From the NCBI GenBank assembly GCA_963713755.1, contig CAVQMW010000005.1, positions 1,455,119-1,519,118 of the forward strand: DNA of 64,000 bases. The letters run 5' to 3'. The notes beneath the pieces are model-generated. The model ran no database searches, was not told where the DNA came from, and saw nothing but the letters and a program-made list of their open reading frames with translations. Positions 24,829 through 43,276 of this stretch are shown here, piece by piece. Both the position numbers and the translations under genes were made by a program. Within the stretch, counting starts at the first letter, position 1. Each line of letters begins with the position of its first letter. Source of the stretch: an uncultured delta proteobacterium. GTDB lineage: Bacteria > Desulfobacterota > Desulfobacteria > Desulfobacterales > CAVQMW01.

Positions 24829-24858
24829 CGGAAAGCCGATCGATTCCGGATAACAATC

Positions 24859-24887: not shown

Positions 24888-24919
24888 GTGATCACTTAAG
24901 CTTGAAAGGAGGTGCTTTG

Positions 24920-25488: not shown

Positions 25489-25557
25489 AACGCTGCAGGC
25501 GCCTAGAGCAGGTGTTGGATCCATAGCGTCTATACCCCACCGGGGCCTCTGAGGTCT

Positions 25558-25586
25558 TTGACTTTGTACCCCATTTGAGCTACATT
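25558..25586 (+). promoter_or_regulatory. Sigma70-type promoter of the dinJ-yafQ-like operon.
   Basis: TTGACT (25558-25563), a 17-nt spacer, then TACATT (25581-25586). Confidence 0.55.
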
Positions 25587-25611
25587 AGTGAAAAACAGAT
25601 GGAGGCACACC

Positions 25612-25872: not shown

Positions 25873-26156
25873 TGCTCACACCTCAATATACCCGTCAATT
25901 TGAGAGAGACATAAAGCGGCTGAAAAAGCGAGGTAAGAACCTTGAAAAGCTTAAAATTATCATCCGATCCCTGATTGCGGAAGAACCTCCTGATCCTCTC
26001 CATCGGGACCATAAGTTGATCGGCAACTGGAAGGGACGACGGGAATGTCACATAGAGTCCGATTGGCTGTTGATCTATAAAACAGGTTTGGACTGCATCA
26101 TATTCGAACGCACAGGAACTCACGCTGACCTATTCCAGAAAAAAGGGCCGCAATAG
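25872..26156 (+). CDS. yafQ: YafQ/RelE-family mRNA interferase toxin.
   Basis: MLTPQYTRQFERDIKRLKKRGKNLEKL and HRDHKLIGNWKGRRECHIESDWLLIY. The start overlaps the dinJ stop (TGATG). Confidence 0.8.
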   Translation: MLTPQYTRQFERDIKRLKKRGKNLEKLKIIIRSLIAEEPPDPLHRDHKLIGNWKGRRECHIESDWLLIYKTGLDCIIFERTGTHADLFQKKGPQ

Positions 26157-27688: not shown

Positions 27689-29494
27689 TTACCGGTAGAC
27701 CGCCTCGATTTCCCGGGCGAATTTTTGGTAGATGTTGGCCCGGCGAACCTTCATGGTGGCGGTGAGCTCGTCGTCGTCGTGGTCCAGCTCTTTTTCCAGT
27801 AGTTTGAAGCGCCGGATGTTCTCGACTCTGGCGAATTGCCGGTTGACCTGTTCCACCTCTTGTTGAATCAGCGCAAGAGTTTCCGGATTGGCCGAAAGGT
27901 TTTTAAAGTTGGTGTAGGCAATTCTGCGATCCGTGGCCCATTTGCCCACATTGTCGAAATCGATCTGGATCAGGGCGGCCAGGTAGTTGCGGCCCTCGCC
28001 CACCACGATGGCCTCTTTAATGTAAGGGCTGACCTTGAGGGCGTTTTCGATCTCCGAAGGGGCGATATTCTTTCCGCCGGAGGTGATGATGATGTCCTTT
28101 TTGCGGTCCACGATCAACACATGGCCGTCCGCGTTGACCCGCGCGATGTCGCCGGTGTGCAGCCAGCCGTCCACCACGGTCTGCCGGGTGGCCGCTTCGT
28201 TCTTATAGTACCCCACGAAGATCAATTTGCCCCGCTTTAGAAGTTCGCCATCCTCGGCGATCTTGTACTCCACGCCCGGAATCGGTTTGCCCACGGTCCC
28301 CAGTTGGATATCCTCTCCGCGGTGGATGAACGAGAGGCCGGTGGATTCAGTCATGCCGTAACCCTCCTTGACCGGGATGCCGATATCGTGGAAAAAGCGC
28401 AGCACATCGGGGCTCACCTTGGCGGCGGCGGAAAAGCAGAAGCGCGTCTTGCGCAGTCCCACATAGTTTTGCAAGGATCGCAGCATGACACCATAGGCCA
28501 GCCACTGAGCGAGGCGGGGTAATAGACCGGGGGGCGCGCCGTTGAGCCGCAGGTTCGCGGTGCGATGTCCCGCTGCCAGGGTTTTTCGAAACAGCCACCG
28601 CTTGATGGGAGTGGATTCCTTGATTTTAATCATGATGGCGGACTGCAGCTTTTCCCAAATGCGCGGCACACCCAGGAATACCGTGGGGCCGATCTCCCGC
28701 AGATCCGCCTGAATGGTGGCGATGCTTTCCGCGAAGTTGACCGTGTAGCCCACATACATGGGCAGGAACAGGCTGAAGATTTTTTCGGCCACATGGCAGA
28801 GGGGCAGGTAGGAGACCACCGAATCGCCGGGACCGGCGCCGATGGCCGCAATGGTGCCCTGAGTCATGGCCTCGATGTTGATGTGGTTGATCATGGCGCC
28901 CTTGGGCTTGCCGGTGGTGCCCGAGGTATAGACCATGATGCAGAGATCTTCGGGGCTTCCCAGTGCCACTTCATCTTCAAAGCGCCGGGGCTGGGTTTTG
29001 GCGAGGCCACGGCCCATCTGCTCCACCTGGGCGAACGATGTGATATGCTCTTTGGGATAGCGCCTGAGCCCCTTCATATCCTTGACGATGATTTTTTCAA
29101 GGGCGGGCAGGCGATCCCGAACTTCCAAAATCTTATCGGTTTGCTCCTGATCCTCCGCCACCACGAACCTGGCGTCTGCATGCTTCACCACATAGTGCAC
29201 TTCGGGGTAGGGACTGGTGGGGTATACGCCCACCGATACGCCGCCCAGACAGATGGCCGCCATGTCGGCGTAGAGCCATTCGCAGCAGTTTTCGCTGACT
29301 ATGGCCAGGTGGTCGCCGCGCTTGAATCCCAGGGAGATCAGCCCCAGGGCGAAATGGTGCACATGGTCCAGGTATTGGGCCCAGGTCACCCGCTGCCAGA
29401 TGCCGAACTCTTTTTCTCGCAGAGCCACCCGGGAGTCCCAGGCTCCCGCGCGCTCCAGAAAAATTTGAGCTAATGTCTTGCCCGTTGGTTCCAT
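27689..29494 (-). CDS. AMP-forming long-chain acyl-CoA synthetase.
   Basis: 601 aa. AMP-binding motif YTSGTTGKPKGAM, GYGMTES, and TGDIARVNADGHVLIVDRKKD. Confidence 0.85.
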   Translation of the reverse strand: MEPTGKTLAQIFLERAGAWDSRVALREKEFGIWQRVTWAQYLDHVHHFALGLISLGFKRGDHLAIVSENCCEWLYADMAAICLGGVSVGVYPTSPYPEVHYVVKHADARFVVAEDQEQTDKILEVRDRLPALEKIIVKDMKGLRRYPKEHITSFAQVEQMGRGLAKTQPRRFEDEVALGSPEDLCIMVYTSGTTGKPKGAMINHINIEAMTQGTIAAIGAGPGDSVVSYLPLCHVAEKIFSLFLPMYVGYTVNFAESIATIQADLREIGPTVFLGVPRIWEKLQSAIMIKIKESTPIKRWLFRKTLAAGHRTANLRLNGAPPGLLPRLAQWLAYGVMLRSLQNYVGLRKTRFCFSAAAKVSPDVLRFFHDIGIPVKEGYGMTESTGLSFIHRGEDIQLGTVGKPIPGVEYKIAEDGELLKRGKLIFVGYYKNEAATRQTVVDGWLHTGDIARVNADGHVLIVDRKKDIIITSGGKNIAPSEIENALKVSPYIKEAIVVGEGRNYLAALIQIDFDNVGKWATDRRIAYTNFKNLSANPETLALIQQEVEQVNRQFARVENIRRFKLLEKELDHDDDELTATMKVRRANIYQKFAREIEAVYR

Positions 29495-29514
29495 GCGTAA
29501 AATTTATTCAGCCG

Positions 29515-30336
29515 CTAACTTAACCAGCGTTTCCTTCGTTTATAGTGTTTGACGTCGTGATAGCTCTTAGCTGCGCCTTGTTCCCCCAGGCCGAGGTAGA
29601 ACTCCTGGACATCCTTGTCCTGGAGCAGGCGCTCCACGGGACCGTCCAGCACCACCCGACCGGTTTCCATGATGTAACCGTATGAACTCACCGAAAGGGC
29701 CATCTGCGCGTTTTGCTCCACCAGCAGAATAGTGGTGCCCTCCTTGCGGTTGATCTCGCGGATGATGGCGAAGATCTCTTCCACCAGCAGGGGTGCCAGC
29801 CCCAGAGAGGGCTCGTCGAGCATCAACAGCCGGGGGCTGGCCAGCAGCCCCCGGCTGATGGCCAGCATTTGCTGTTCGCCTCCGGATAGGTAGCCGGCGG
29901 TCTGTTTGAGCCGGGTTTTGAGGATCGGGAAGTAGGTGAGACATTTATCCAGATCCTGCTTTACAGCCGAACGATTTTTTCGGATATAGGCGCCGCAGCT
30001 GAGATTTTCATCTACGGTGAGCTCTTCGAAAATTCGGCGCCCCTCCATCACCTGAAATATCCCCTGGCGCACAATCTGGTGGGGCGCCAGGCCGGTCAGG
30101 GAGGCTCCGTCAAACTCGATGGAGCCGTCGCTGATCTCCCCATCCTCCAGGGGCAGAAAACCGCTGATGGCTTTCAGGGTGGTGCTTTTCCCGGCGCCGT
30201 TGCTGCCCAAAAGGGCAATGATCTCCCCTTCGGGCACCTGCAGGGAGAGCCCCTTGAGCACCAGCACCACATGATTGTAGACCACCTCGATATTGTTCAC
30301 CTTCAGGATCGAGGGCCGGCGGGGTTGCGCTTCCAT
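29515..30336 (-). CDS. Liv-type ABC transporter ATP-binding protein (LivF-like).
   Basis: Walker A GSNGAGKST, signature LSGGEQQML and Walker B LMLDEPSLGLAP. Confidence 0.85.
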   Translation of the reverse strand: MEAQPRRPSILKVNNIEVVYNHVVLVLKGLSLQVPEGEIIALLGSNGAGKSTTLKAISGFLPLEDGEISDGSIEFDGASLTGLAPHQIVRQGIFQVMEGRRIFEELTVDENLSCGAYIRKNRSAVKQDLDKCLTYFPILKTRLKQTAGYLSGGEQQMLAISRGLLASPRLLMLDEPSLGLAPLLVEEIFAIIREINRKEGTTILLVEQNAQMALSVSSYGYIMETGRVVLDGPVERLLQDKDVQEFYLGLGEQGAAKSYHDVKHYKRRKRWLS

Positions 30337-31521
30337 CTACTCTTCCAAATAGATCCAGTCCGACGCCGGGTCAAAGCGGCCTTCCTTGGCGATATAGACT
30401 TTGCCCACGGCCGTGGCGTTGGTGCTTTTAAAGGTGACGATGCCGGCAAATCCCTGGGTATCCCAATCCTTGATCTGGGGCAGGGCGTCTTTCAGATTTT
30501 CCCCGGTAATGGGCAGCCCCAGTTCATGGCATTTTTTGGCTGCCTGGGTGAAGATCATGCCGGTGAACCAGCCCTGCATATAGGAGTTTGGGCGGTAGGT
30601 GACATCCGGGTGATGGCGCTGGTTAAACTCATGGATGGCCTGAATCATGGGGACATCCGTATGGTACCAGTAGGCATAGGGGTTGACCCCCATGAAACCC
30701 TCCCCATCGGGTCCCAGTTTGTCGAGTAGCATTTTGGACATGGTCCAGAAGGAACCCATAAACGTGGTTTCGAGGCCGAAGTCCTTGGCGCCCCGGATCA
30801 CCGCGGGAATGGGAGGCACCACATAGCCCTGGAAGATGCAGAAGTCGGGATTATTGCGTTTCAGGTCCAGCAGTTGGCTGGTCACATCCACAGCCCCCAC
30901 GGCGGTCACCTCCTCGGCCACGACCTCCACCCCCAGCTTTTCCGCCATCTCGCGGGCATAGGGGATGGGGTCGCGCCCAAACTCGGTATCGCTGTAGAAG
31001 AAGGCCACCGTGGGTTTTTGGCCCTCTTTCTTGGGATGGGCGGCAATGTATTTGAGCAGGATGCCGAACTGCTGGGCATAAGTAGGGCCGGAGACGAACA
31101 TGTAGGGGTTCTTGCCGCGGTCGGCCAGCTCTTCGGAAAAGGAGGTAGAGCCGTAGAGTACGTGGTAACGGTCGTTGATCTCCGGGGCGAGAGCCTTGCC
31201 CTGACCGGTGGATTCACCATAATTCATGGGCGGGCTGTGCTTGGCCATCTGCTTTTTGAAAGAGGCCACGGCGCGTTTAACGTCGTAGCCGGTATCTTCG
31301 TAGGTGTATTCGAACATCATCCCGGCCACGCCGCCCTGCTCATTGGCGTAGGCCAAGGCGTCCGCCAGGCCCTGGTGGATGTTCTTGCCGGCGAAGGCAA
31401 AACGGCCGGTGATGGGCTGTTGGCCTGTCACCTTGATGGCTTCGGCCCCCATAGCCAGAGGGGTCATGAGAAGAACGCATAGTAATGCCATCAGCCAAAC
31501 CCTGCAATGTCGCCTCTTCAT
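30337..31521 (-). CDS. Periplasmic substrate-binding protein (type I, LivK-like).
   Basis: Signal peptide MKRRHCRVWLMALLCVLLMTPLAMGA. 394 aa, positioned within the Liv-type operon. Confidence 0.75.
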   Translation of the reverse strand: MKRRHCRVWLMALLCVLLMTPLAMGAEAIKVTGQQPITGRFAFAGKNIHQGLADALAYANEQGGVAGMMFEYTYEDTGYDVKRAVASFKKQMAKHSPPMNYGESTGQGKALAPEINDRYHVLYGSTSFSEELADRGKNPYMFVSGPTYAQQFGILLKYIAAHPKKEGQKPTVAFFYSDTEFGRDPIPYAREMAEKLGVEVVAEEVTAVGAVDVTSQLLDLKRNNPDFCIFQGYVVPPIPAVIRGAKDFGLETTFMGSFWTMSKMLLDKLGPDGEGFMGVNPYAYWYHTDVPMIQAIHEFNQRHHPDVTYRPNSYMQGWFTGMIFTQAAKKCHELGLPITGENLKDALPQIKDWDTQGFAGIVTFKSTNATAVGKVYIAKEGRFDPASDWIYLEE

Positions 31522-31596
31522 CTCCTGCTCCTTTCGTTACGAGTATCCTCTTTCGGCGGGGCGACCCCCAGGGTCCGCCCGCCGGCCGGCTGTGGA

Positions 31597-32640
31597 TCAA
31601 TTTTCAAAAGGCCACAACCGAAAGTAGTTCTTTACCCGCCGCCACATCTCAGCCAGTCCGTGGGGCTCGAATACCAGAAAGACAACGATCAGCAGCCCGA
31701 ACACCACGGTCTGCAGGGGGTACAGATAACTCATAATCGTGGGACTGAGCCCCTGGAAAAAACCCATGATGCTTTGCAGCACTTCAGGAATCAGGGTCAT
31801 GAAAATAGCCCCGCAAATGGCCCCCAGCACCGACCCCAGGCCGCCCACGATGATCATGGCCAAATAGCGGATGCTCTCGTGGAGGGGGAAATGCTCCGGG
31901 GTGACGATCTTGAGCAGGTAGACATTGAGGCACCCCGCCACTCCGGCGTAAAAGGAGCTGGCCGCAAAGGCCAAAAGTTTGTAGTGAAACAGATTGATCC
32001 CCATGATTTCGGCGGAGATGTCCCGGTCGCGGATAGCGATAAAGGCGCGCCCTACACGGGTTCGAAACAGGTTCCGGGCGCCGGTCACGGCCACGATTAC
32101 GATGGGTAAGGTGACAAAATAGAAGCCGAACTCCGTGTTCAACTTGACGCCGAAGATTTCAGCGGTGGGCACATTGATACCCCGGATGCCACCGGTAACC
32201 GGCTCCCAGTGAATGAAGATAAACTCAAAGATCATTTGCGCGGCAAGGGTGGCGATACACAGATAGAGCCCTTTCATGCGCATGGAGGGCGCGCCCACGA
32301 CCACCCCCGCCAGGGCCGCGGCCAGCCCCGACAAGGGCAGGCAGACCAGAAAGGGCAATCCTAGACGGGTGGTCAGGATGGCGGCGGTGTAGGCGCCTAC
32401 ACCGACGAAGGCCGCATGCCCCAGGGAGATTTGGCCGGCCGCTCCGGTCAGGATATTGAGCCCCACGGCGGCGATGATGGCGACTCCGGTATGGTTGGCC
32501 ATGTAGAGTAAATAGGGACCGGCTAAAAAGGGAAAGATCAGCAGCGCGGCAAAGAGGATTCCCATCCACACCCAGGAGGTGGGGCTGGGAAAGACCGCCT
32601 CGTCGGCGGCATAGCTCTCTTTGAAATCTCCGATACGCAT
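31597..32640 (-). CDS. Liv-type ABC permease (LivM-like).
   Basis: 347 aa and polytopic, with TGAAGQISLGHAAFVGVGAYT. Confidence 0.8.
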   Translation of the reverse strand: MRIGDFKESYAADEAVFPSPTSWVWMGILFAALLIFPFLAGPYLLYMANHTGVAIIAAVGLNILTGAAGQISLGHAAFVGVGAYTAAILTTRLGLPFLVCLPLSGLAAALAGVVVGAPSMRMKGLYLCIATLAAQMIFEFIFIHWEPVTGGIRGINVPTAEIFGVKLNTEFGFYFVTLPIVIVAVTGARNLFRTRVGRAFIAIRDRDISAEIMGINLFHYKLLAFAASSFYAGVAGCLNVYLLKIVTPEHFPLHESIRYLAMIIVGGLGSVLGAICGAIFMTLIPEVLQSIMGFFQGLSPTIMSYLYPLQTVVFGLLIVVFLVFEPHGLAEMWRRVKNYFRLWPFEN

Positions 32641-32644
32641 ATAA

Positions 32645-33529
32645 TTACAGCCGCTCGATCTCCTCTTTGCCGAACAAGCCGTAGGGTTTGATCAGCAGGA
32701 TGATCACCAGCACCACAAAGGGCGCCAGGTTTTTAACGCCACCGCCCACATAGGGATCCAAATAGCCCCCGGCGATGTTCTCCACCAGGCCCACAATAAA
32801 CCCGCCCACCACCGCCCCGGCAATGGAGTCGAGGCCGCCCAGGATAACCACCGGAAAAATTTTAAGCCCGATATGGCCCAGAGTGGGCTGGATGCCGCCC
32901 ATATTGCCGATGATCACTCCCCCCAGGGAGGCGGCCACCGCGCCCAGGGACCAGGCCAGGGTGAACATGGCGCGCACATTGATTCCCATGGAGAAGGCCG
33001 CCATCTGATCGTTGGCCGTGGCCCGCATGGCCACTCCCACTTTGGTGTACTTGAACAGCAGCGCAAAGAGGATCACCGCGGCCATGGCGATTAAAAAGCC
33101 CCAAAACAGGTTGGAGCGGATGATGATATCTCCCATGATAATGGGCGCCCGGGGAAAAAGGGGCGGGAAGCTCTTGAAATCCGTGGACCAGATGATTTCA
33201 GCCGCGCCCATCAGGATCGAGGAGAGACCGATGGTGACCATGATGACGCTGATCGCGGGCTGGCCCAGCATATGGCGAAGAATGGCGCGTTCCACCCAGA
33301 ACCCGAGCAGTGCCGCGCAGCCCATCACCAGCACAAAGGCCGGTATGGCCGGAATCTCGGCCCCAACCATGAAAGTGTAGAAAAAGTAGGCCCCAATCAT
33401 CATGAACTCGCCGGTGGCGAAGTTGATGATACTGGTGGCTTTGTAGATCAAGACAAAACCCAATGCGATCAGGGCGTATACTCCACCCACGGCAATTCCG
33501 CTGACGATGAGCTGTGCCAGGATATCCAT
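32645..33529 (-). CDS. Liv-type ABC permease (LivH-like).
   Basis: 294 aa and polytopic, with INFATGEFMMIGAY. Confidence 0.8.
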   Translation of the reverse strand: MDILAQLIVSGIAVGGVYALIALGFVLIYKATSIINFATGEFMMIGAYFFYTFMVGAEIPAIPAFVLVMGCAALLGFWVERAILRHMLGQPAISVIMVTIGLSSILMGAAEIIWSTDFKSFPPLFPRAPIIMGDIIIRSNLFWGFLIAMAAVILFALLFKYTKVGVAMRATANDQMAAFSMGINVRAMFTLAWSLGAVAASLGGVIIGNMGGIQPTLGHIGLKIFPVVILGGLDSIAGAVVGGFIVGLVENIAGGYLDPYVGGGVKNLAPFVVLVIILLIKPYGLFGKEEIERL

Positions 33530-33530
33530 G

Positions 33531-34337
33531 TCAGACTTTCTTTTCTCCTAGATAGGCCTTGATCACCTCCGGGTGGCGCTGAACATCCCGCGGGGTGCCT
33601 TCGGCGATTTTCTCTCCGAAATTGACCACCAGGACCCGGTCGCTGATATCCATGATCAGGCGGATATCGTGTTCGATGAGCACGATGGTGACATCCCGCT
33701 CCTGCTGGATATCGAGAATGAAACGCGCCATGTCTTCGGTCTCCTCGGCGTTCATCCCGGCCACCGGCTCGTCCATGAGCAGCACTTTGGGCTGCATGGC
33801 CAACGCCCGGGCCAGTTCCACCCGTTTTCGCAGTCCATAGGGCAGCGATGCCACGGGGCGTTTGCGGATATGTTCAATTTCCAGAAAATCGATGATTTCC
33901 TCCTCGATTTCCCGCCTCAGGGCCATCTCCTCGCGATGGGCGGCACCCCAGTAGGCAAAGGCCGACAATAGGCCGGTTTTCAGGTGGGAATGTGCGCCCA
34001 GCTTGATGTTGTCCAGGACGGTCATTCCGCGGTAGAGGGCAATATTCTGAAAGGTGCGGGCCATTCCCAGTTTGGCCCGGCGGTCGCAGGAGAGCCGGGT
34101 AATCTCGCGCTCCATGAAGTAGATCCGGCCTTGGTCCGGCTTATAAAACCCGCCGATGATGTTGAGGATGGAGGTTTTACCGGCGCCGTTGGGGCCGATA
34201 ATGGCAAAGATTTCACCCGGGGCGACCTCAAAACTGATGCGGGTGAGGACGGCGAGACCGCCAAAGGCCAGACTCACATCCTCTGATTTGAGGATGGGGG
34301 GGTCCCCGGAGTTGCCCATGGCGGCCGTTTGCGGCAT
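33531..34337 (-). CDS. Liv-type ABC transporter ATP-binding protein (LivG-like).
   Basis: Walker A GPNGAGKTS and Walker B LLMDEPVAGMN. Confidence 0.85.
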   Translation of the reverse strand: MPQTAAMGNSGDPPILKSEDVSLAFGGLAVLTRISFEVAPGEIFAIIGPNGAGKTSILNIIGGFYKPDQGRIYFMEREITRLSCDRRAKLGMARTFQNIALYRGMTVLDNIKLGAHSHLKTGLLSAFAYWGAAHREEMALRREIEEEIIDFLEIEHIRKRPVASLPYGLRKRVELARALAMQPKVLLMDEPVAGMNAEETEDMARFILDIQQERDVTIVLIEHDIRLIMDISDRVLVVNFGEKIAEGTPRDVQRHPEVIKAYLGEKKV

Positions 34338-34508: not shown

Positions 34509-34536
34509 GTAGGGGTTCAATATTTTGAACCCCTAC
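34509..34536. repeat. Perfect 12-bp-stem hairpin just 3' of the KamA-family gene.
   Basis: GTAGGGGTTCAA-TATT-TTGAACCCCTAC. No U-tract follows on either strand. Confidence 0.8.
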
Positions 34537-34551
34537 TAGAAAGGATAGAGG

Positions 34552-37029
34552 TCAGGATAGGGCGAAGTCCGTGGTTTTCACCAGCCCCTTGACCGGGATC
34601 ACGGGATGGCCGTCGGCATCCTCGCTGACCTGCGCCGGCCAGCTGAAATTGGGATCCAGGGCTTTAAAGTAGGCCAGGTCGTAGGGCAGCAATTTGAGGG
34701 AAAGGTCGCTATCGCCACCCTCGAACCTGGAAGAGAGGCCGAAATCCACTTCCCCCAGGGCCGTGCGGATGATGTAGCGGGGGATTTCCCGGCCGCTGCC
34801 TTCCCTCCGCACCCGGGTGGCGATGTCCACCACATCGTAAAGCGCCACCGGGTGGTTTTGGTTCCATTTTTCCTGGACAGGCAGGCCGGCCACATAGAGA
34901 TGATGAAATTCGATGGCGGCCTGGCGGCAGGCAAAAGCCAGTCGGTGGATATCTTCGGGGGTGTCATTGATTTTGCCCAGCAAGGGGGTGTTGTTGTACA
35001 CCGTAATGCCCTTGTTGTTGAGCCGCCGCACCAGGCGGGCATGGTCTTGGTTCACTTCCTCGGCGGCCAGAAACTGGGTTTCGATTTCGAGGCGCAGAGG
35101 GTTGACGATGGTCAACTGGTTCAAGGCGCCCAGGGCGTCCACCACCGCCGCGGTGTAGCTTTGCGGGGCGGTGTTAAATTTCAGGCTGCGCAGACGCACG
35201 GCATTGACATGGGGCGTATCCTGAAGTTCGCGGACGATCCAGCGGATCTGGGACAAGGCATCCACGGTGTCGCCGGAGGAAACGATGCGCACGTCACTGA
35301 TGCGTTCATCGCCGCGAATGTAGTACAGATCCTCCGGAACGGCGTTGACATCCAGTTCCACTCGGGTTTCGTGGACCCGCGAGAGGGTTCCCGAGCCGCT
35401 ATTGACGATGCCGGGGGTAATGCCTTCAAGCTCATCAATGAGCGGCCTTACGGCATCGCTGCTCTCGGGCTGGGGGGTGATGCCGCCGCCCAGACGCAGG
35501 GGCCGGGATCCCAGATATAAATTTTCATCTCCGATTTGGGCCATGTATTGAATGTCGATGGTGCCTTCCGCATTGACCCGGATATTGGTCAGTTCGTTGG
35601 CGATGGGCGCGAACTGTTTGAAGTAGTTCGGGGTGTAGGGGCTGCGGATCCACATGAAGTTGGGGTTTTCGGCCACCGGCTCCACGGCCCAGCCGCTGGT
35701 GTGCCAATCCATCTTGCCGATGGGCGTGGCGGTGCAGATCCGGGGGATCACCCGGTCGGAAAGATGAGCGCGCAGGTAATTGCCCGCTGCCAGGCCCTTG
35801 GCGATGGGCGTCCAGTAGACACTGTTGCCGTGGATGGGACTGCAGGGGATGTAAATATAGTGCAACTCCGCTCCGGCGCCCCGCAGCAGGCTGAAGAGCC
35901 GCACCAATTCGAGACCTTGGTCGTTGCAATTTTTCAGAAAAGGGGTTTGCACATAGACCGCAATGCCGCTTTTCACCAAATCGGTGATAATCATCAGGCT
36001 TTGGGGGGAGATCTCGTCAGGATGGATAAAGTGCGTGGCCACTTCCATGCGCTTGCCGCGCTGCTGCAACGCGAGGTTTTTTTGCTTCAGATAGTTGAGC
36101 ATCTCCCCGTCATGGGAGAGGAACAGGTGGGGATAATAAGCGATGGCGCGGGTGGCCAAACGCAGGGTCTGCACGTGGTCAATGGCCATGAGGCCTTCGA
36201 TGGCGGCCTCCATGTTTTTGCGATTCATAAAAGGGTCGCCCCCGGTGATCACAATCTCCTTGATGGCGGGGGAATTGGCTACGTGGGCCACGGCGCGCTT
36301 CACATCGGCCATGCGGGGGTTGGTTTCGTTGCGGGACTCCTTGTGCTTGCGGAAGCAGAAGCGGCAGTAAACCGGACAGCTCATGTTGAGCAGGAAAATC
36401 ACCCGATTGCGGTACATCTGTTCCAGTAGTCCCTGGTGAAACTGGCCGATCCAGGTGTTGGTGTGGCCGGCATCGTCCAGCTCTTGGGTAAAGGGCAGAT
36501 ATTGGTAGGCCACATTGCGGGAGACTTGCATCTGGCGGATGGTGTGCATGGAGAGCCGCACCGGGTAGGTCTCGATCACTTTTTGCAGGTCCGCCCGGTC
36601 CGCCTGGGGCACCTTGATGTTGACCGCTTGTTCCAACTGGTCAACGGTTTTAATGGAGATAAAGCGGTTGCCGGGCAGCACCACTTCCAGGATCGCCATG
36701 AGCAGCAGATGGGGCAGGGTGACCCCGTTGATGGTCGGCCGGCGGATGCCGTCCGCGGTGCTCTCCACGGCGGAGCCTAACAGATCGAGCAACCGGCGGA
36801 AGAATCCATGGGGATCGTTCGCATAGCCGCAGGCTTCCAGCAGCCGGGAGAATTTGGCGGGTCCCTCGCCGGTCTGGATGATGCCGTAAAAGTCCGGGCC
36901 GACCCATGATTTTACGCCGTAGTGCTCCAAGAAATGGGTCATGGCCGCCACCAGCTCGGAAAGAGGCGCCTGGTGTTCTTCACCTGAATGGGCGTAGGTG
37001 ATGGTCAATACCGTATCGTTCGCCGACAT
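34552..37029 (-). CDS. Double-length KamA-family (2,3-aminomutase-like) radical-SAM protein with a degenerate second module.
   Basis: CPVYCRFCFRKH (Cys triad at nt 36355-36378), IVITGGDPF and the KamA-type barrel order. The ATG at 37029 is preceded by an AGGAG RBS. The ORF is formally open to 37158. Confidence 0.8.
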   Translation of the reverse strand: MSANDTVLTITYAHSGEEHQAPLSELVAAMTHFLEHYGVKSWVGPDFYGIIQTGEGPAKFSRLLEACGYANDPHGFFRRLLDLLGSAVESTADGIRRPTINGVTLPHLLLMAILEVVLPGNRFISIKTVDQLEQAVNIKVPQADRADLQKVIETYPVRLSMHTIRQMQVSRNVAYQYLPFTQELDDAGHTNTWIGQFHQGLLEQMYRNRVIFLLNMSCPVYCRFCFRKHKESRNETNPRMADVKRAVAHVANSPAIKEIVITGGDPFMNRKNMEAAIEGLMAIDHVQTLRLATRAIAYYPHLFLSHDGEMLNYLKQKNLALQQRGKRMEVATHFIHPDEISPQSLMIITDLVKSGIAVYVQTPFLKNCNDQGLELVRLFSLLRGAGAELHYIYIPCSPIHGNSVYWTPIAKGLAAGNYLRAHLSDRVIPRICTATPIGKMDWHTSGWAVEPVAENPNFMWIRSPYTPNYFKQFAPIANELTNIRVNAEGTIDIQYMAQIGDENLYLGSRPLRLGGGITPQPESSDAVRPLIDELEGITPGIVNSGSGTLSRVHETRVELDVNAVPEDLYYIRGDERISDVRIVSSGDTVDALSQIRWIVRELQDTPHVNAVRLRSLKFNTAPQSYTAAVVDALGALNQLTIVNPLRLEIETQFLAAEEVNQDHARLVRRLNNKGITVYNNTPLLGKINDTPEDIHRLAFACRQAAIEFHHLYVAGLPVQEKWNQNHPVALYDVVDIATRVRREGSGREIPRYIIRTALGEVDFGLSSRFEGGDSDLSLKLLPYDLAYFKALDPNFSWPAQVSEDADGHPVIPVKGLVKTTDFALS

Positions 37030-37145
37030 GGTCTTTGCTCCTGTTGCGCGCTGGAATCGGAATGTTAAACCCCGTGAGGGCCCATCAATCCTATTGCCGC
37101 CGGCCGGCGGCCAGGGGCGGGTTTGAAACCCTTTTTTTCCGGCAT

Positions 37146-37213
37146 TTGACATTCTCATTTAAATCTGCCACTATTAACTATTATAGTAAATCATTTTCCA
37201 TTATAGTATGATC
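37146..37213. promoter_or_regulatory. Divergent promoter/operator region between the KamA-family gene and iclR.
   Basis: Plus strand: TTGACA at 37146-37151. Two direct repeats C(T/C)ATTATAGTA(A/T)(A/G)ATC lie at 37178-37193 and 37198-37213, 20 bp apart. On the minus strand each contains TATAAT (37185-37180 and 37205-37200). The latter has TTGGGG 17 nt upstream (37228-37223). Confidence 0.5.
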
Positions 37214-37233: not shown

Positions 37234-38007
37234 ATGTCAAAAGGAAAATACTACTTTTCCAAATCACTGGAAAAGGGTCTGAAAATATTGACACTTTTCG
37301 ACGCCGAGACGCCGGTGTTGACCCAGAGCGGCATCGCCCGGACCCTGGGGATGAATATGACCTCCACCTATCGTTACATCAACACCCTTCAAGAGTTGGG
37401 CTATTTGGAAAAGGATCTCAAAACCAAGGAGATCCGGCCCAGCATCCTATGTCAGTTGCTGTGCAACAACCTGACCCAGGCTACGGACCGGCTGCGGCTG
37501 GTCAAGGCCGTGGTGGATCGGATCCACCGTGAAAACAACATCAGCATCGACGTGGTATTGATCGTGGACGATACCCTCCGGCGCCTGTACCATCGGGTGG
37601 CCCAGGAGACCCTGACCTACAGCCTGCCGGACGAGGCCAAACATTGCTTGCACAATACGGCCCTGGGCAAGGCCTATTTATTCAGCTTGCCTGGAGACCA
37701 ACTCCCAGGGAAGATCGGTGCCCTAAAGTTGGCGGCGCGCACGTCCCAAACCATTGTGGATGCTGCGCTGCTGATCAAGCAGCTGCAAGCCTACAAGCGA
37801 CGCGGATACGCAATGTGCGCAGAAGAGTATCTGCAAGGATTGGTGGCCATTGGCGCGCCCCTGATGGACACCACCCGCGGCAAAGGGATCGGTGCGGTCT
37901 CCTTTGATTTTTCCATCCTGCAGCACAGTGCCGGGGAGATCGAGGCCAAATACGGAACAATGATCATCGAGACCGCCCAATCGCTGTCCGAAGTTCTGAG
38001 CGCCTAG
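37234..38007 (+). CDS. IclR-family transcriptional regulator.
   Basis: SLEKGLKILTLFDAETPVLTQSGIARTLGMNMTSTYRYINTLQELGYLEKD (wHTH), followed by a C-terminal IclR effector domain. Confidence 0.85.
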   Translation: MSKGKYYFSKSLEKGLKILTLFDAETPVLTQSGIARTLGMNMTSTYRYINTLQELGYLEKDLKTKEIRPSILCQLLCNNLTQATDRLRLVKAVVDRIHRENNISIDVVLIVDDTLRRLYHRVAQETLTYSLPDEAKHCLHNTALGKAYLFSLPGDQLPGKIGALKLAARTSQTIVDAALLIKQLQAYKRRGYAMCAEEYLQGLVAIGAPLMDTTRGKGIGAVSFDFSILQHSAGEIEAKYGTMIIETAQSLSEVLSA

Positions 38008-38063: not shown

Positions 38064-38930
38064 ATGAAATCCGAAAGCTGGAAACCTTGGGCCCTGCTGT
38101 CGCCGGCCATGAGCGCGGTCTTTTTGCTGCTGGTGATTCCGGTCTGTTTTGTGGTGGTCTACAGTTTCTGGCTGCGGGCGCCCAGCGGCGCCGACATTCC
38201 GGCATTCCAGCTGGGCAACTACGCCAAGTTCTTCGAAGATTTCTTCTACCCCAAAATACTGATCCGCACCATCCGGATCGCCTTTGAAACCGTTTTTCTT
38301 TGTGTGGTGCTGGGCTACATCCCGGCCTACTACTTCTACCGCAGCGAGAGCCGCTACAAACAGGTGTTTCTGCTGTTGATCATGCTACCCTTCTGGGTGA
38401 GTTTTATCATCCGCACCATGAGCTGGATCAACATCATGGGGGATACCGGGCTGATCAACCATTTTCTGCTCAAGACCGGGCTGATCGAAACGCCCCTCTC
38501 CATGCTCTACAATGAGTTTACCGTTCTCATGGGGCTGATCATGTACCTTTTGCCCTTTATGGTGCTCAACATCTATGTCAGTCTGGAGGGGATCGACAAA
38601 AGCCTCTTGGAGGCGGCCCGCTGCATGGGTTGCACCGAGTGGCAGGCTTTCCGTGAAGTGACGCTGCCCTTGAGCCTGCCCGGAGTGAGCGCCGGCTGTC
38701 TACTGGTGTTCGTCCTTACCGCCGGCACCTATCTGCCCCCCATGATCCTGGGGGGTCCGGGCAACGACATGATCGCCAACCTCATCTTCAAGCGGGTCAT
38801 CGGGACTCTGGACTGGCCCTTTGGTTCGGCCATCAGCGTCATTTTGCTCAGCCTGTTGTTTGTGATCGTCTGGACTTACAACCGCTACCTGGGTATCAAT
38901 CAGATTTTCAAGAGCTTTCAAGGCAGCTGA
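38064..38930 (+). CDS. Pot-type ABC permease (PotB-like).
   Basis: 288 aa with 6 predicted TMS and the EAA-loop LLEAARCMGCTEWQAFREVTLP. Confidence 0.8.
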   Translation: MKSESWKPWALLSPAMSAVFLLLVIPVCFVVVYSFWLRAPSGADIPAFQLGNYAKFFEDFFYPKILIRTIRIAFETVFLCVVLGYIPAYYFYRSESRYKQVFLLLIMLPFWVSFIIRTMSWINIMGDTGLINHFLLKTGLIETPLSMLYNEFTVLMGLIMYLLPFMVLNIYVSLEGIDKSLLEAARCMGCTEWQAFREVTLPLSLPGVSAGCLLVFVLTAGTYLPPMILGGPGNDMIANLIFKRVIGTLDWPFGSAISVILLSLLFVIVWTYNRYLGINQIFKSFQGS

Positions 38931-38933
38931 CCC

Positions 38934-39731
38934 ATGAAACACTTCTCCCCGGGCTGGACTCTGATTCGCCTTTACACCCTGCTGGTCTACCTCTTCATGT
39001 TCGCCCCCATCGTGGTGGTGATCGTGCTGGCCTTCAACCCCAAACAGTTCGGCATTTTTCCCATGGAGGGGGTCAGTCTGCGCTGGTTCATCAAGCTGGC
39101 CCAAAACGAATCCATCATCGATGCTTTTAAAAACTCCCTGGTGCTGGGTTTTTTTACAGCGCTGATTTCCACGGGCGTCGGCATTTTAGCGGCCCTGGCC
39201 TTTATCCGTTTCGAGTTTCCCGGCAAAAACACCATCAATACCCTGCTGCTCTCGCCGATCATGATTCCCGAAGTGGTGCTGGGGGTGGCTCTGCTGCTTT
39301 TTTTGCGCTGGCTGCAGCAGCCCAAGAGTTTTGTGCTGCTGTTGATCGGCCATGTGGTGCTGACCCTGCCCTATGTGCTGCTCATTGTTCAGGCGCGGCT
39401 GGTGGGCATCAAGAAGGAGTACGAAGAGGCGGCCAAGTCCCTGGGGGCCAATGGCTTTCAAACCTTCAAGGAGATCACCTTCCCACTCCTGCTGCCGGCC
39501 GTGTTGGCCGGGGCTCTGTTCGCTTTTACCATCTCTTTTGATGATATCACCGCGACCCTCTTTTGGGCCACGGCCCAAAACCAGACGGTTCCGGTGAAAA
39601 TTTTCAGCATGTTGCGAAATTCCATCAGCCCAGAGATCAACGCCTTGGGCGCGGTGATGATCGTGCTCACCGTGGCCACCCCCTTGCTGGCGGGATATCT
39701 CTCCCGTAAGTTTTCCAAATTCAAGGACTAA
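38934..39731 (+). CDS. Pot-type ABC permease (PotC-like).
   Basis: 265 aa with the EAA-loop YEEAAKSLGANGFQTFKEITFP. Confidence 0.8.
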   Translation: MKHFSPGWTLIRLYTLLVYLFMFAPIVVVIVLAFNPKQFGIFPMEGVSLRWFIKLAQNESIIDAFKNSLVLGFFTALISTGVGILAALAFIRFEFPGKNTINTLLLSPIMIPEVVLGVALLLFLRWLQQPKSFVLLLIGHVVLTLPYVLLIVQARLVGIKKEYEEAAKSLGANGFQTFKEITFPLLLPAVLAGALFAFTISFDDITATLFWATAQNQTVPVKIFSMLRNSISPEINALGAVMIVLTVATPLLAGYLSRKFSKFKD

Positions 39732-39762
39732 TCCAACAACCTTCAACTGAAAGGAGACTCTG

Positions 39763-40926
39763 ATGGCTATCGTTACCCAAGAAAAACTGGATCGGATTAT
39801 GGAGGCTTATCAACAGGGCACCCTCAGCCGCCGTCACTTCATCAAATATCTTTCCATGGCCGGGGCTTGCCTGGGACTTACGGCCATGCCCTTGGGCGGT
39901 TTAACGCAAAAGGCCTGGGCGGCGAAGTCCATCCGTTTTGACGGCTGGGGAGGTTCGGTTTCCGAAGCGTTCCGGGAACACGCCTTCAAACCCTTCACCG
40001 AAGCGACCGGCATTGAGGTAATCGACGGCGAATTCGGCGATATGAACTCCTATCTCACCCGGGTCAAAGCCTCCTTCCCGCCGGGTGGAGAGTTCAACAT
40101 CGCCCATCTCAGCGCCGTGTTCGACTATGCCCGCTACGTGGACCTGGGATTCTCATCGGTGCTGGATGAGACCAAAATCCCCAATTTGAAAAATGTGATG
40201 TCCTCCATGATCAAACCCTTGCGGGATATCACCCAAGGCACGCTTTCGGCGGTGCCCTACGACCTGGGGCAAACCGGCATTGCCTACAACACCCAGCATA
40301 TCAGCAAGGAGAAGGCCGAGAAACTGGGGGCTTCCCTGCTGTGGGACAAGGAGCTCCAAGGCAAGCTGGGCAGTTGGGAGGGCGATTTCAGGACCAACAT
40401 GTGGTACGCGGCGCTGCACACCGGCCAAAGCCCCAACAACATGACCGATCTGGAGGCGATCTGGGCGGCGTTGCGCGAGCAGAGGGATCTGATGAAAAAG
40501 TATTGGGCCTCGGGGGCCGAATTGATGAGCCTGCTGGCCAACCAGGAGATCTACGCCACGGTGGCCTGGTCCGGTCGGGTAGCGGCCCTGCAGCAGGAAG
40601 GGCACCCCATCGGCTATCTCTCTCCCGAGGGCACTTACTCCTGGATGGAGTATCTATTTGTCCTCAAAGGGACCGATTTGGACGTGGCCCAGCAACTGCT
40701 CAACTTCATGTTGGAGCCCGCCGCGGCGATCGCCGTGGCCGAGGGCCAGAACTATCCGCCCAGCCTAGATCCCACCAAGGTGGAGCTCACCGAGAAGATC
40801 AAGCAGATGCCGGCCTTTGATCCCACCGGTAAGCTGGAAGGCTACCTCTTCGCCGATCCGGCCTACTGGAACGCCAACCAGGTGGAATGGACAGAGAAGT
40901 GGGACCGTATCAAGGCGGGCAGCTAG
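39763..40926 (+). CDS. Pot-type periplasmic substrate-binding protein with a twin-arginine signal.
   Basis: Tat consensus SRRHFIKYLSMAGACLGL and cleavage-like AWAAKS. A PotD/PotF-like SBP of 387 aa, with a strong RBS (AAAGGAG). Confidence 0.75.
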   Translation: MAIVTQEKLDRIMEAYQQGTLSRRHFIKYLSMAGACLGLTAMPLGGLTQKAWAAKSIRFDGWGGSVSEAFREHAFKPFTEATGIEVIDGEFGDMNSYLTRVKASFPPGGEFNIAHLSAVFDYARYVDLGFSSVLDETKIPNLKNVMSSMIKPLRDITQGTLSAVPYDLGQTGIAYNTQHISKEKAEKLGASLLWDKELQGKLGSWEGDFRTNMWYAALHTGQSPNNMTDLEAIWAALREQRDLMKKYWASGAELMSLLANQEIYATVAWSGRVAALQQEGHPIGYLSPEGTYSWMEYLFVLKGTDLDVAQQLLNFMLEPAAAIAVAEGQNYPPSLDPTKVELTEKIKQMPAFDPTGKLEGYLFADPAYWNANQVEWTEKWDRIKAGS

Positions 40927-41036
40927 CAGGCTAAACAGAAAACGATTCGCCTCTTGGGCCGCCGCCGCCCCTCCTATGTCAACGGGAGGGCAGTGGCGGC
41001 ATCCCGATTCAATCCCAACCGGGGGAGTACAAGACA

Positions 41037-42137
41037 GTGGCAAGCGGCAAGACCCAGCCCATGGTGCAGTTCAAAGGCATTTTTAAGCGGTTTGGCAAAG
41101 TGACCGCTGTGGAGAAAATGGATTTTGAAATCGAAGAGGGGACTCTGGTGACCCTGCTGGGGCCGTCAGGGTGCGGAAAGACCACCCTGCTGCGTATGGT
41201 GGCCGGGCTGGAGGAGCCCACCGAGGGGGATATCTTCATCAATGGCGTGCGGATCAACGATACCCCCATCCATCAGCGCAACCTGGGAATGATCTTCCAG
41301 AACTACGCCCTGTTTCCCCACAAAACCATTTATGAAAATGTCGCCTTCGGCCTGAAGTACCGCAATGTTCCTAAGGCGCAGATCCCGGATAAGGTGTCTC
41401 GGGCGCTGGAGATGGTCCGCTTGCCGGGGGTGGAAAAGCGCATGCCCAGCCAGCTCTCCGGCGGACAGCAGCAGCGCATCGCCATGGCCCGGGCGATTGT
41501 CATCGAGCCGGACGTACTGCTCATGGACGAGCCTCTCTCGGCCCTGGATGAAAATCTGCGGGAAGAGATGCGGCGGGAGGTGGACAACCTTCAGCGGATG
41601 CTCGGCGTCACCACCATTTTCGTCACCCACGACCAGCGCGAAGCCCTGAGCATGTCGGACAAGATCCTGGTGATGAAGGAGGGCCTTAAGCAGCAGGAGG
41701 GCGACCCCGAAACGGTTTACAATGAACCGGTTAACCATTTTGTGGCCGATTTTCTGGGCCACTCCAATTTCATCAACGGCGAGGTCGTAGAGGTCGGCAA
41801 CGATCATCTTAAGGTCAGGATCGAAACCGGCGATCTCCTCCTGGCGAAAAACAAAGGCGGATTCTCGACGGGGGATCCAGTGGAGATCATCGTCCGCGCC
41901 CAGCGCTTTGACGCCTTTCCCAGAGATGAATTCAAACCTGCGGAAGGCATGAACCATTTTGAAGGGCGCATCAAGGACCGCAGCTACATGGGCGGAGAGG
42001 TGAGCTATTTCATCGATTTGGGCGCCGGCCGTGAAATTCATATCATCAGCATGATGCGCACCCGGCTCTACAACATCGGTGAGACGGTGAGTGTGCAGGT
42101 CTCCCCCCACCACTGCCACCTGATTCCCCTGGCCTAA
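41037..42137 (+). CDS. Pot-type ABC ATP-binding protein (PotA-like).
   Basis: Walker A GPSGCGKTT, signature LSGGQQQRIAMARA, Walker B LLMDEPLSALD and a C-terminal TOBE-like domain. The start is GTG 41037 or ATG 41061. Confidence 0.85.
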   Translation: MASGKTQPMVQFKGIFKRFGKVTAVEKMDFEIEEGTLVTLLGPSGCGKTTLLRMVAGLEEPTEGDIFINGVRINDTPIHQRNLGMIFQNYALFPHKTIYENVAFGLKYRNVPKAQIPDKVSRALEMVRLPGVEKRMPSQLSGGQQQRIAMARAIVIEPDVLLMDEPLSALDENLREEMRREVDNLQRMLGVTTIFVTHDQREALSMSDKILVMKEGLKQQEGDPETVYNEPVNHFVADFLGHSNFINGEVVEVGNDHLKVRIETGDLLLAKNKGGFSTGDPVEIIVRAQRFDAFPRDEFKPAEGMNHFEGRIKDRSYMGGEVSYFIDLGAGREIHIISMMRTRLYNIGETVSVQVSPHHCHLIPLA

Positions 42138-42140
42138 GCC

Positions 42141-42395
42141 TGACTGTTGGACACACTTGACACTGGGGGTGTGTTGTCATGCTTCGAGCTTATCGGCTAC
42201 AGGCGCGACTACTGGATCTCCGCCCCCCGCCTAAAGCCTGCGGGGGCAGGCCCCGCGGAGATGACGTGCAGTCAGTAGGATCCGTCATTCCCGCGCAGGC
42301 GGGGCACGCAGTGAAGCTTTAGCGCTATCCATACTCAATATATTGAATTTATTTCGTAAATACTGCCCACAGTGTCAAGTGTGGCCAACAGTCAG
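42141..42395. mobile_element. 255-bp MITE (non-autonomous element) with 30-bp terminal inverted repeats and a 9-bp target-site duplication.
   Basis: Left TIR is CTGACTGTTGGACACACTTGACACTGGGGG (42141-42170). The reverse complement of the right end (42366-42395) is CTGACTGTTGGCCACACTTGACACTGTGGG, a 28/30 match. GGCCTAAGC flanks both sides (42132-42140 and 42396-42404, 9/9). No ORF is inside. Confidence 0.85.
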
Positions 42396-42442
42396 GGCCT
42401 AAGCAACGGTTTTTTTCTGGGACACCTGCCGGAGTCAAGGCC

Positions 42443-43276
42443 ATGGCCGACACGGTTGAAAACATCCTGGGCTCTCGGGTCCAGCACGGTCCTCACAACC
42501 AACGCATCTACCTGATGAAATTGGGCCCCCGGCATACGCCGGGACTTGTGGCCGCCTTGGATGATTTGGCCCGGCAAAAGAGTTACGGGAAAATCATTGC
42601 CAAGATTCCGGCCTCGGCCTGGGAGCCTTTTGAACGCGCCGGGTATCGAATCGAAGCGCGGGTGCCGGGATTGATCCGCAACCGCCATGAGGCTCTGTTC
42701 GTGGCTAAATATCCGGTCCCACGGAGAGCGCGGGAGTACCGGGACCCATTCGATTCAGCCTCTCCTCGACCTCCGAATTCCATTCGCGCCAGACAATTGC
42801 GCCCAAAAGCGCAGCCCTCCCATCCGGTTTCTCCCCTGATACCCGACGATGTCGAGGATATGCGCGCGATATATCGCCGGGTATTCCGCTCCTACCCCTT
42901 TCCCATCGACAACACTCACTACCTGAAGGGGATGATGAGGGCCGATGTTTTGTACTACGGGGTTCGAATGGAGGGGAGCCTGGCGGCCATCGCCGGCGCT
43001 GAGATGGATGCAACGGACCGCAACGTGGAGATGACGGACTTTGCCACCCGGCCTTCCTGGCGGGGCCGGGGTCTGGCCAAATCCCTGCTCACCCACATGG
43101 AGCGAACCTGCCGCGGGCTGGGTTTTTTAACCGCTTACACCATTGCCCGGTCGGCATCCGCGGGGATGAATCGGGTCTTTCAGTCGCGGGGATACCACCA
43201 GGGCGGGCGGCTCATTAACAACACTCAAATCAGCGGTAAAATCCAAACCATGACCGTTTGGTACCGCCGGCTATAG
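42443..43276 (+). CDS. AblB-family GNAT (putative beta-lysine N-acetyltransferase).
   Basis: 277 aa. Motifs: QHGPHNQRIYLMKL, YGKIIAKIPASAW, IYRRVFRSYPFPIDN, NVEMTDFATRPSWRGRGLAKSLL, YTIARSASAGMNRVFQSRGY and NNTQISGKIQTMTVWYRRL. The pattern is recalled from the AblB/YodP family, not searched. Confidence 0.65.
   Translation: MADTVENILGSRVQHGPHNQRIYLMKLGPRHTPGLVAALDDLARQKSYGKIIAKIPASAWEPFERAGYRIEARVPGLIRNRHEALFVAKYPVPRRAREYRDPFDSASPRPPNSIRARQLRPKAQPSHPVSPLIPDDVEDMRAIYRRVFRSYPFPIDNTHYLKGMMRADVLYYGVRMEGSLAAIAGAEMDATDRNVEMTDFATRPSWRGRGLAKSLLTHMERTCRGLGFLTAYTIARSASAGMNRVFQSRGYHQGGRLINNTQISGKIQTMTVWYRRL

Follow-up and report, generated by a model that had tools for sequence, protein, structure and literature searches.

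A KamA-related gene with two modules

The present analysis concerns a stretch of 64,000 nucleotides (hereafter the window) from contig CAVQMW010000005.1 of an uncultured delta proteobacterium, and within it a gene on the minus strand (34552..37029; 825 aa plus stop codon) that encodes a protein with two modules of the KamA family, the lysine 2,3-aminomutase (LAM)-like branch among radical S-adenosylmethionine (SAM) enzymes. The listed open reading frame (34552..37158, minus strand) comprises 868 aa when it is read from its first ATG. A preliminary description of the locus, made from the sequence alone, had preferred the shorter form, and since homologues of 819 – 826 aa align end to end from the ATG at 37029, which is preceded by an AGGAG ribosome-binding site 8 nt upstream, we take the 825-aa form to be the real protein; an identical 825-aa protein is also present in the database. 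Residue numbers refer to this form unless the 868-aa numbering is stated.

The protein begins with a family-specific domain of a β-hairpin and helices (aa 1 – 124; 36658..37029, like all parts of the gene on the minus strand) that lies outside all KamA profiles. The preliminary description had put this extension at roughly 150 aa, a value that has to be lowered to about 124 aa because the KamA profiles begin to match at aa 125. There follows module 1 (aa 125 – 495; 35545..36657), a complete KamA-type radical SAM/pyridoxal phosphate (PLP) module as judged by profiles, by the structure of LAM (KamA from Clostridium subterminale, PDB 2A5H) and by conserved motifs. A variable linker (aa 496 – 545; 35395..35544), which differs in length between homologues and is modelled with low confidence around aa 511 – 520, then leads to module 2 (aa 546 – 825; 34555..35394), a KamA-derived (βα)6 unit without the cysteine triad, the GGD motif and the PLP lysine.

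The internal repeat is far above chance level. A BLASTP comparison of aa 1 – 480 with aa 481 – 825 gave an E-value of 1e-15 (24% identity over 218 aa), and an hhalign comparison of module profiles built from 17 family members aligned aa 219 – 493 of module 1 with aa 543 – 811 of module 2 over 266 columns (probability 99.9%, E 2.4e-34). The repeat which the preliminary description had read by eye in the two halves is found again by BLASTP, by NCBIfam profiles, by hhalign and in the order of the predicted structural elements. The duplicated unit moreover takes in the C-terminal tail, where WIRSPYTPNYFKQF...NAEGTIDI of module 1 corresponds to LKLLPYDLAYFKAL...DADGHPVI of module 2.

Both halves match KamA-type profiles of NCBIfam, including the C-terminal one, for which the preliminary description had regarded the lack of such a match as speaking against a repeat. 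Residues 125 – 438 match the models for lysine, glutamate and arginine 2,3-aminomutase as well as the general KamA model with E-values of 1e-45 to 4e-50, the best being TIGR03820 (E 3.6e-50, aa 125 – 438), and module 1 also matches 2A5H in phmmer (E 7e-21). When the last 322 aa were submitted alone, they matched TIGR04368, TIGR00238, TIGR03820 and TIGR04468 with E-values of 1.8e-17 to 3.8e-13. These matches span only the part of the profiles after the cysteine triad, which for TIGR04368 (E 1.8e-17) corresponds to profile positions 184 – 371 of 404. In Pfam, only the first third of the Radical_SAM domain was seen (aa 218 – 281), while the C-terminal half gave no match and LAM_C was not found either, such that NCBIfam was needed to detect module 2.

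Conserved and lost residues

To describe conservation, 90 full-length members of the family were compared. In module 1, the residues C218, C222, C225, R227, H229, T262, G263, G264, R290, R294, E329, H333, Q361, R420, R426, T435, G438 and K439 are present in all 90. The cysteines form the CxxxCxxC triad of the [4Fe-4S] cluster (CPVYCRFC; 36355..36378, correctly placed already in the preliminary description), which aligns to C125/C129/C132 of LAM. Where strand 2 ends, the SAM-binding GGD/E motif is likewise invariant as T262-G263-G264-D/E265. K439 (35713..35715), which lies in the sequence TATPIGK, is the predicted Schiff-base lysine for PLP. Its equivalence to K337 in the GGGGK loop of LAM was matched by eye, since the printed alignment with 2A5H stops at G438/G334, three residues short of K337; a LAM-like protein places its GGGGK lysine opposite K439 in the alignment.

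None of these cofactor motifs is kept in module 2. The residues that pair with the triad are variable and cysteine-free, or the loop is wholly missing, and the number of cysteines in aa 500 – 825 varies from zero to nine per member, with none conserved and three members lacking any. In the protein studied here, cysteines occur at positions 67, 218, 222, 225, 368, 396, 432 and 701 (110, 261, 265, 268, 411, 439, 475 and 744 in the 868-aa numbering), in agreement with the cysteine-free stretch 476 – 743 of the preliminary description, which had used the latter numbering. The positions equivalent to the GGD motif (584 – 586) are variable among the members. At the position of the PLP lysine, 83 members have E, six have D and one has V; here hhalign pairs K439 with E760 (LGEVDF; 34750..34752). 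The loss of the Fe-S triad and of the GGD motif, previously described for the single protein, is therefore a feature of all 90 members, and the loss of the PLP lysine can be added to it.

The pairing of the triad loop differs between methods, as hhalign places module 2 residues 543 – 550 opposite to it, whereas AlphaFold2 (AF2) secondary structure together with a MAFFT alignment indicates that the cluster loop and the next helix (about 26 aa) are deleted in module 2. Judged by the sequence, module 2 is unable to bind a cluster under either alignment. An equivalence of R551 in module 2 with the carboxylate-binding R134 of LAM, for which the hhalign pairing speaks, was withdrawn as unsafe in view of the deletion of about 26 aa indicated by the other approach.

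Mean pairwise identity amounts to 69% in module 1, 51% in module 2, 37% in the N-terminal domain and 33% in the linker. Twelve residues of module 2 are invariant in all members (R551, H553, D579, R612, E648, N688, G715, Q719, R741, S745, R747 and G759), the majority having a counterpart among the pocket residues of module 1. The identity of 51% compared to 33% in the linker and the twelve invariant residues show that module 2 is under clear purifying selection. The earlier picture of a live KamA module fused to a dead one is thereby supported, as the motifs of module 1 are complete in 90 of 90 members and module 2 is stripped of them. The sequences indicate, however, that "dead" has to be understood as without cluster, SAM or PLP chemistry rather than as unconstrained.

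Predicted structure

An AF2 model calculated with a 50-sequence alignment shows the whole chain as one compact body (mean pLDDT, the per-residue confidence score, 91.1; pTM, the score for the overall fold, 0.93) with two (βα)6 cores. Both modules have the same order of elements, in which six strand/helix units are followed by a β-hairpin, a further two pairs of strands and finally a tail, with strands starting at residues 209, 258, 288, 327, 357 and 388 in module 1 and at residues 556, 579, 610, 645, 676 and 707 in module 2. In a Foldseek search against the PDB, LAM (2A5H) was far ahead of all other matches (E 4.6e-20, probability 1.00, TMt 0.69), followed by generic radical SAM folds with E-values of about 1e-4, so that the predicted fold is LAM-like. 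The N-terminal domain reaches a pLDDT of 93 – 98 at aa 20 – 80 and of 83 when it is modelled alone; Foldseek found no fold match for it in the PDB (best E 0.42).

Distribution and origin of the family

The preliminary description had suggested a survey of homologue lengths, from which it emerges that the form of about 820 aa is not a one-off and instead defines a clade of Desulfobacterales/Thermodesulfobacteriota. More than 120 homologue clusters at 90% identity (819 – 826 aa) were found, and their carriers, where named, are Desulfobacterales, Desulfosarcina, Desulfotignum and Thermodesulfobacteriota. An exhaustive search of 1.84 billion representatives yielded, besides many fragments, about 13 full-length representatives of 808 – 850 aa that cover the whole query at 37 – 52% identity, while ordinary KamA proteins (340 – 460 aa) match only aa ~125 – 496 at 24 – 34% identity. 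In addition, 89 loci were studied, where a scan of genome contigs with the single protein yielded four loci and an alignment-based scan of metagenomes 80; an importer cluster, described below, is the typical neighbour of the gene.

It could be objected that the long reading frame is an artefact of assembly or annotation, such as a frameshift-fused gene pair or a chimeric contig. The sole ground for this is that the window derives from a metagenome-assembled genome. It is refuted by the recurrence of the uninterrupted reading frame of about 820 aa in more than 120 clusters and in 89 independent loci, which come from many samples and in part from contigs of 1.4 – 5.6 Mb, and the single compact body of the AF2 model (pTM 0.93) also speaks against it, so that we regard the probability of an artefact as negligible.

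In the source annotations, the protein bears the generic names "radical SAM protein", "lysine 2,3-aminomutase" and "KamA family protein". The scores for the equivalog models of NCBIfam remain far below the respective cut-offs, with 170.9 bits for lysine 2,3-aminomutase (TIGR03820; cut-off 525.4), 160.5 for glutamate 2,3-aminomutase (TIGR04368; cut-off 650), 153 for arginine 2,3-aminomutase BlsG (TIGR04468; cut-off 600) and 131 for EpmB/YjeK (TIGR03821; cut-off 369). Literature searches, including Desulfobacteraceae proteomics, found no description of a tandem or pseudo-dimeric KamA protein or of the gene cluster. Because all NCBIfam scores lie below the cut-offs and the literature searches were empty, the family does not correspond to a characterised one; the preliminary description had named the opposite outcome, a common and already characterised family, as damaging to its proposal. 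The two-module KamA family is uncharacterised and conserved.

The nearest single-module relatives are proteins of the type P0168, P0173, P0175 and P0186 (370 – 412 aa, 31 – 35% identity to module 1), which form a likewise uncharacterised KamA subfamily. In a neighbour-joining tree of 199 shared columns, module 2 is placed as sister to module 1 in 62 of 100 bootstraps, with no single-module protein between the two. That the protein consists of two related modules, as stated in the preliminary description, thus stands, and its further claim of an internal tandem duplication is favoured by the sequence comparison over a fusion of paralogues, albeit not proven with 62 of 100 bootstraps. Under the latter scenario, two adjacent KamA paralogue genes, one of them already degenerate, would have been fused. 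This could account for the identity of module 2 to P0168-type proteins (24.4% compared to 24.7% to module 1 in the 199 shared columns), for the score of its hidden Markov model, which is 147 bits with P0168 and 90 – 137 bits with module 1 segments, and for the same C-terminal tail in the P0168 type. However, the tree puts module 2 beside module 1, and two separate adjacent genes were seen in none of the 89 loci, which makes a fusion of paralogues unlikely in our eyes; the nature of the present protein would be the same under either history.

The only other long match, P0217 (702 aa), was considered as a second tandem form and rejected. Judged by eye, it has a single KamA module and a C-terminal ATP-grasp-like (D-Ala-D-Ala-ligase-like) region, and is a different KamA fusion that is apparently also undescribed.

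Genomic neighbourhood

Upstream of the gene lies a divergent control region with a pair of TACTATWATAGT palindromes (37177..37208), of which the copy at 37177 – 37188 is perfect and that at 37197 – 37208 degenerate. Since every one of the 25 loci with an iclR gene carries this pair at an unchanged spacing, it is probably an IclR operator. A TTGACA box at 37146 adjoins the palindrome pair. The divergent gene (37234..38007, plus strand) encodes an IclR-family regulator (Pfam HTH_IclR and IclR_C), which is 62 – 67% identical and syntenic in L001 and L005 – L007. It is followed on the same strand by a PotB/PotC/PotD/PotA-like ATP-binding cassette (ABC) importer (38064..42137), assigned by Pfam, with two permeases, a substrate-binding protein with a twin-arginine translocation signal and an ATPase. 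The binding protein matches PotD, PotF and polyamine-binding structures.

Beyond the transporter operon, after a 305-bp spacer behind the ATPase gene and 5.4 kb from the enzyme gene, there is a gene for a GNAT acetyltransferase of the AblB (β-lysine N-acetyltransferase) type (42443..43276, plus strand; TIGR03827 269 bits, cut-off 205). No canonical AblA was found in the whole window, and this genome segment also lacks the M23-like, racemase, amidohydrolase and aminotransferase genes that occur in relatives. Between the ATPase and the GNAT genes lies a 258-bp element (42139 – 42396) with 31-nt inverted ends (94% complementary) that occur nowhere else in the window. Relatives carry racemase, amidohydrolase and aminotransferase genes exactly at this place, and the element looks like an insertion similar to a miniature inverted-repeat transposable element or like a deletion scar.

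On the other side, a hairpin, GTAGGGGTTCAAnnnnTTGAACCCCTAC, is found in the sequence directly past the stop codon (34509..34536, minus strand), in a 214-bp gap to the next gene; since no T-run follows, we can only infer a role as terminator. Directly downstream are the five genes of a Liv-type branched-chain amino acid ABC transporter and a gene for a 601-aa FadD11-like acyl-CoA ligase (27689 – 34337). This pairing recurs in L024, whereas L019, L021 and L061 have an AMP-binding ligase; elsewhere the pairing is absent. As hairpin and 214-bp gap lie between them and the enzyme gene and as they recur in few loci, the Liv-type transporter and the ligase were rejected as partners.

For the linkage counts in relatives, 42 loci with at least 8 kb of flanking sequence were used. 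Among these, the ATPase (PotA) gene is present in 33, the binding protein gene in 29, a proline-racemase-family gene in 25, an Amidohydro_3 gene in 22, and GNAT and aminotransferase genes in eight each; a second type of aminotransferase follows the enzyme gene in another arrangement. The transporter genes are 81 – 94% identical among loci, which is above the conservation of the enzyme itself, and they are linked to it in at least three gene orders. When all 89 loci are regarded, a GNAT homologue occurs in 15, in six of which its gene is the direct upstream neighbour of the enzyme gene. In some loci, the IclR regulator is replaced by a σ54 activator.

Immediately 3' of the enzyme gene, 46 of 67 loci (L001 – L007 and most of L010 – L089; e.g., L007:12476 – 13138) have a gene for an M23-like cytosolic protein of 220 aa in which the metal motifs HxxxD and HxH are intact. 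Among NCBIfam models, it matches best the middle of PRK06148 (profile positions 412 – 570 of 1015), a model for kinase-M23-aminotransferase fusion proteins. The proline-racemase homologue has both catalytic cysteines and is closest to true proline racemases (E 3e-77). In L027, L028, L056 and L079, a binding protein of the polar-amino-acid type (255 aa) and one permease take the place of the PotBCD-like parts, and the genes for enzyme, IclR, GNAT and amidohydrolase are retained. This exchange of the importer suggests an amino-acid-like substrate. No functional clue was obtained from the neighbourhoods of the divergent members P0124 and P0129 or of the single-module proteins P0168 and P0173.

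Proposed function and substrate

Starting from the observed architecture, motif loss, conservation, fold and gene linkage, we consider it fairly probable that the protein is a single-chain pseudo-dimeric radical SAM enzyme of the KamA (LAM-like) branch that acts within a regulated import cluster. Module 1 is predicted to bind a [4Fe-4S] cluster, SAM and PLP and would move an amino group of an amino acid in a radical 1,2-shift, from α to β or the other way round. As a copy of module 1 in which the cluster cysteines, GGD/E and the PLP lysine are lost, module 2 is incapable of this chemistry. It could serve as a permanently attached non-catalytic partner in place of the second subunit that closes the active-site channel of LAM, and its conserved pocket may have kept the ability to bind a ligand. 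By analogy, the single-chain enzyme probably mimics the obligate dimer of the KamA family, and the one indication that modules 1 and 2 would superimpose together on the two chains of a 2A5H dimer is the pTM of 0.93 for the whole chain; according to the abstract of the paper on 2A5H, a domain-swapped partner subunit is said to close one end of the channel in LAM. The enzyme would be co-regulated with the PotABCD-like importer via the shared pair of IclR-type operators and, in relatives, would work together with the M23-like protein, the proline-racemase-family enzyme, the amidohydrolase, the aminotransferases and the AblB-type acetyltransferase.

Several observations weigh against this proposal. 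With 162.5 bits, the protein stays below the cut-off of the general KamA-family model TIGR00238 (199.2 bits) and is, by the rule of NCBI, a divergent relative of the KamA family and no member. Falling below all NCBIfam cut-offs is, moreover, a property shared with the single-module P0168-type proteins. The proline-racemase-family, amidohydrolase and M23-like partners fit no known aminomutase pathway, and all three are absent from the window. Finally, the invariant polar residues of module 2 sit at nearly all strand ends, as would be expected of a functional ligand pocket more than of a scaffold alone.

The last point bears on the question of what module 2 does. Instead of acting as structural partner, it could be a pseudoenzyme domain whose ligand is the substrate, the product or an effector, and which controls or supplies module 1 through allostery, hand-off or product capture. 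The C-terminal ends of its strands and its hairpin carry the conserved polar residues D579, R612, E648/E650, Y678/N680, N688-D689, R741, S745, R747, T756, G759, E760 and D762, most of which pair one-to-one with E258, R290, E329, Y359/Q361, N369-D370, R420, S424, R426, T435, G438, K439 and D441 of module 1, and from a mere scaffold one would expect a mean identity lower than 51%. However, no ligand can be named, and conserved charges can also be structural, for example in buried salt bridges or at the interface to module 1. We therefore regard a ligand-binding role of module 2 as a rather improbable alternative to the pseudo-dimer.

With respect to the substrate, the residues of module 1 that correspond to D293 and D330 of LAM are informative. 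These aspartates, as Lepore et al. 2005 are said to have reported, bind the ε-ammonium group of lysine. Their counterparts are S397 (84 S, 6 H) and A434 (88 A, 2 P). Because both aspartates are replaced, the substrate is probably not free lysine, and a binding of free lysine in the fashion of LAM appears unlikely from the sequence. By analogy with the neighbouring functions, an imported amino acid or N-acyl amino acid is most likely. A neutral, possibly N-acylated side chain would fit the types of importer, the GNAT of the AblB-like kind and the partners with aminotransferase and amidohydrolase function, and the role of the cluster is probably the catabolism or turnover of an amino-acid-type solute.

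The enzyme might nevertheless be the AblA of an AblA/AblB system that provides β-lysine for the osmolyte Nε-acetyl-β-lysine, with the extra module being without bearing on its function. Such a role would be in line with the AblB-equivalog GNAT at a distance of 5.4 kb (269 bits compared to 205), which in six related loci directly precedes the gene, with the label lysine 2,3-aminomutase that many sources give to the protein, and with the sediment-type names of many samples and contigs, which could point to a saline setting where osmolytes are needed. Against it speak the TIGR03820 score of 171 bits (cut-off 525), the replacement of both ε-ammonium-binding aspartates (S397, A434) and the presence of the GNAT in only 8 of the 42 well-flanked loci compared to 33 of 42 for the importer. 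As the IclR or σ54 regulator together with importer, aminotransferases and amidohydrolase also looks catabolic, we consider a function as AblA very doubtful.

If the proposal of a pseudo-dimeric enzyme in an import cluster is carried further, one could speculate about a new anaerobic pathway in marine sulfate reducers that scavenges an N-acylated or otherwise non-basic amino-acid osmolyte, with the aminomutase interconverting α and β forms before a β-transamination, and with module 2 as a functional pseudoenzyme domain that binds a ligand in order to exert allosteric control or to hand over the substrate, rather than as an inert scaffold. Candidates may be Nε-acetyl-β-lysine from methanogens or anaerobic methanotrophic (ANME) archaea, Nγ-acetyl-diaminobutyrate from the opening of the ectoine ring, or a proline-containing solute. 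Taken as a whole, this scenario is quite improbable.

Comparison with known systems

Module 1 shares with LAM the fold, the CxxxCxxC and GGD motifs, the equivalent of Q258, the PLP lysine and the arginine after the triad (R227, corresponding to R134 of LAM), and it is from this fold that module 2 is derived as well. The subunits of LAM, a homotetramer, are identical and all active. In contrast, the present protein has double the length, with a cofactor-less module fused in cis and an extra N-terminal domain of 124 aa. The inter-subunit Zn site of LAM is, according to the LAM structure paper, reportedly formed by C268 together with C375/C377/C380; here, C268 aligns to the variable position 371, neither module has a CxCxxC motif or Cys-rich tail, and Pfam LAM_C does not match. 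Further differences are the replacement of D293 and D330 by S and A and a loop before the PLP lysine that is two residues shorter.

This short IGK loop and a C-terminal "W-I-R-T-P-Y-T ... E-E-G" tail, the latter in both modules, are shared with the P0168 type, which in turn has one module, no N-terminal domain and other gene neighbourhoods. The enzymes covered by TIGR04368, TIGR04468 (BlsG) and TIGR03821 (EpmB/YjeK) belong to the same superfamily and both modules match their profiles, yet these enzymes are single-module proteins and the scores are far below the equivalog cut-offs. With the AblA/AblB pathway, the system has in common the genetic association between an enzyme of the KamA type and a GNAT that is an AblB equivalog. 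It differs in that the enzyme is no AblA equivalog, that the association is partial, and that the genes form a cluster with importer and regulators instead of a two-gene biosynthetic operon.

A catalytic unit beside a homologous partner that lacks some cofactor-binding residues is also found in other radical SAM systems, for example in the eukaryotic Dph1-Dph2 pair, where the two are separate polypeptides of a different radical SAM lineage. The present case is distinct in the fusion of the two units and in their membership of the KamA branch, which is PLP-dependent. To our knowledge, all characterised KamA-type aminomutases are homo-oligomers of identical single-module subunits. A conserved fusion of a live and a cofactor-less module would hence show which parts of the partner subunit the chemistry needs, would supply a built-in asymmetric "half-site" enzyme for mechanistic work, and would represent a clear case of pseudoenzyme evolution among radical SAM proteins. 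Desulfobacterales, in which the two-module family is abundant, rank among the major oxidisers of carbon in marine sediments, and with the substrate of the cluster named, one more pathway of anaerobic amino-acid or osmolyte turnover would be gained. For hundreds of sequences, the current labels "lysine 2,3-aminomutase" and "radical SAM protein" are probably either incorrect or without content.

Other features of the window

At 21126 – 22562, the window encodes a 478-aa protein with a weak match to the MttB family of trimethylamine methyltransferases (Pfam E 1.8e-18) that is far below the NCBIfam cut-off for the pyrrolysine type; from its sequence, it could be a non-pyrrolysine quaternary-amine methyltransferase. 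The G+C content is 47 – 52% at 4000 – 16000 and 18000 – 26000, compared to 56 – 63% in the rest of the window, and the stretches of low G+C content could be acquired islands.

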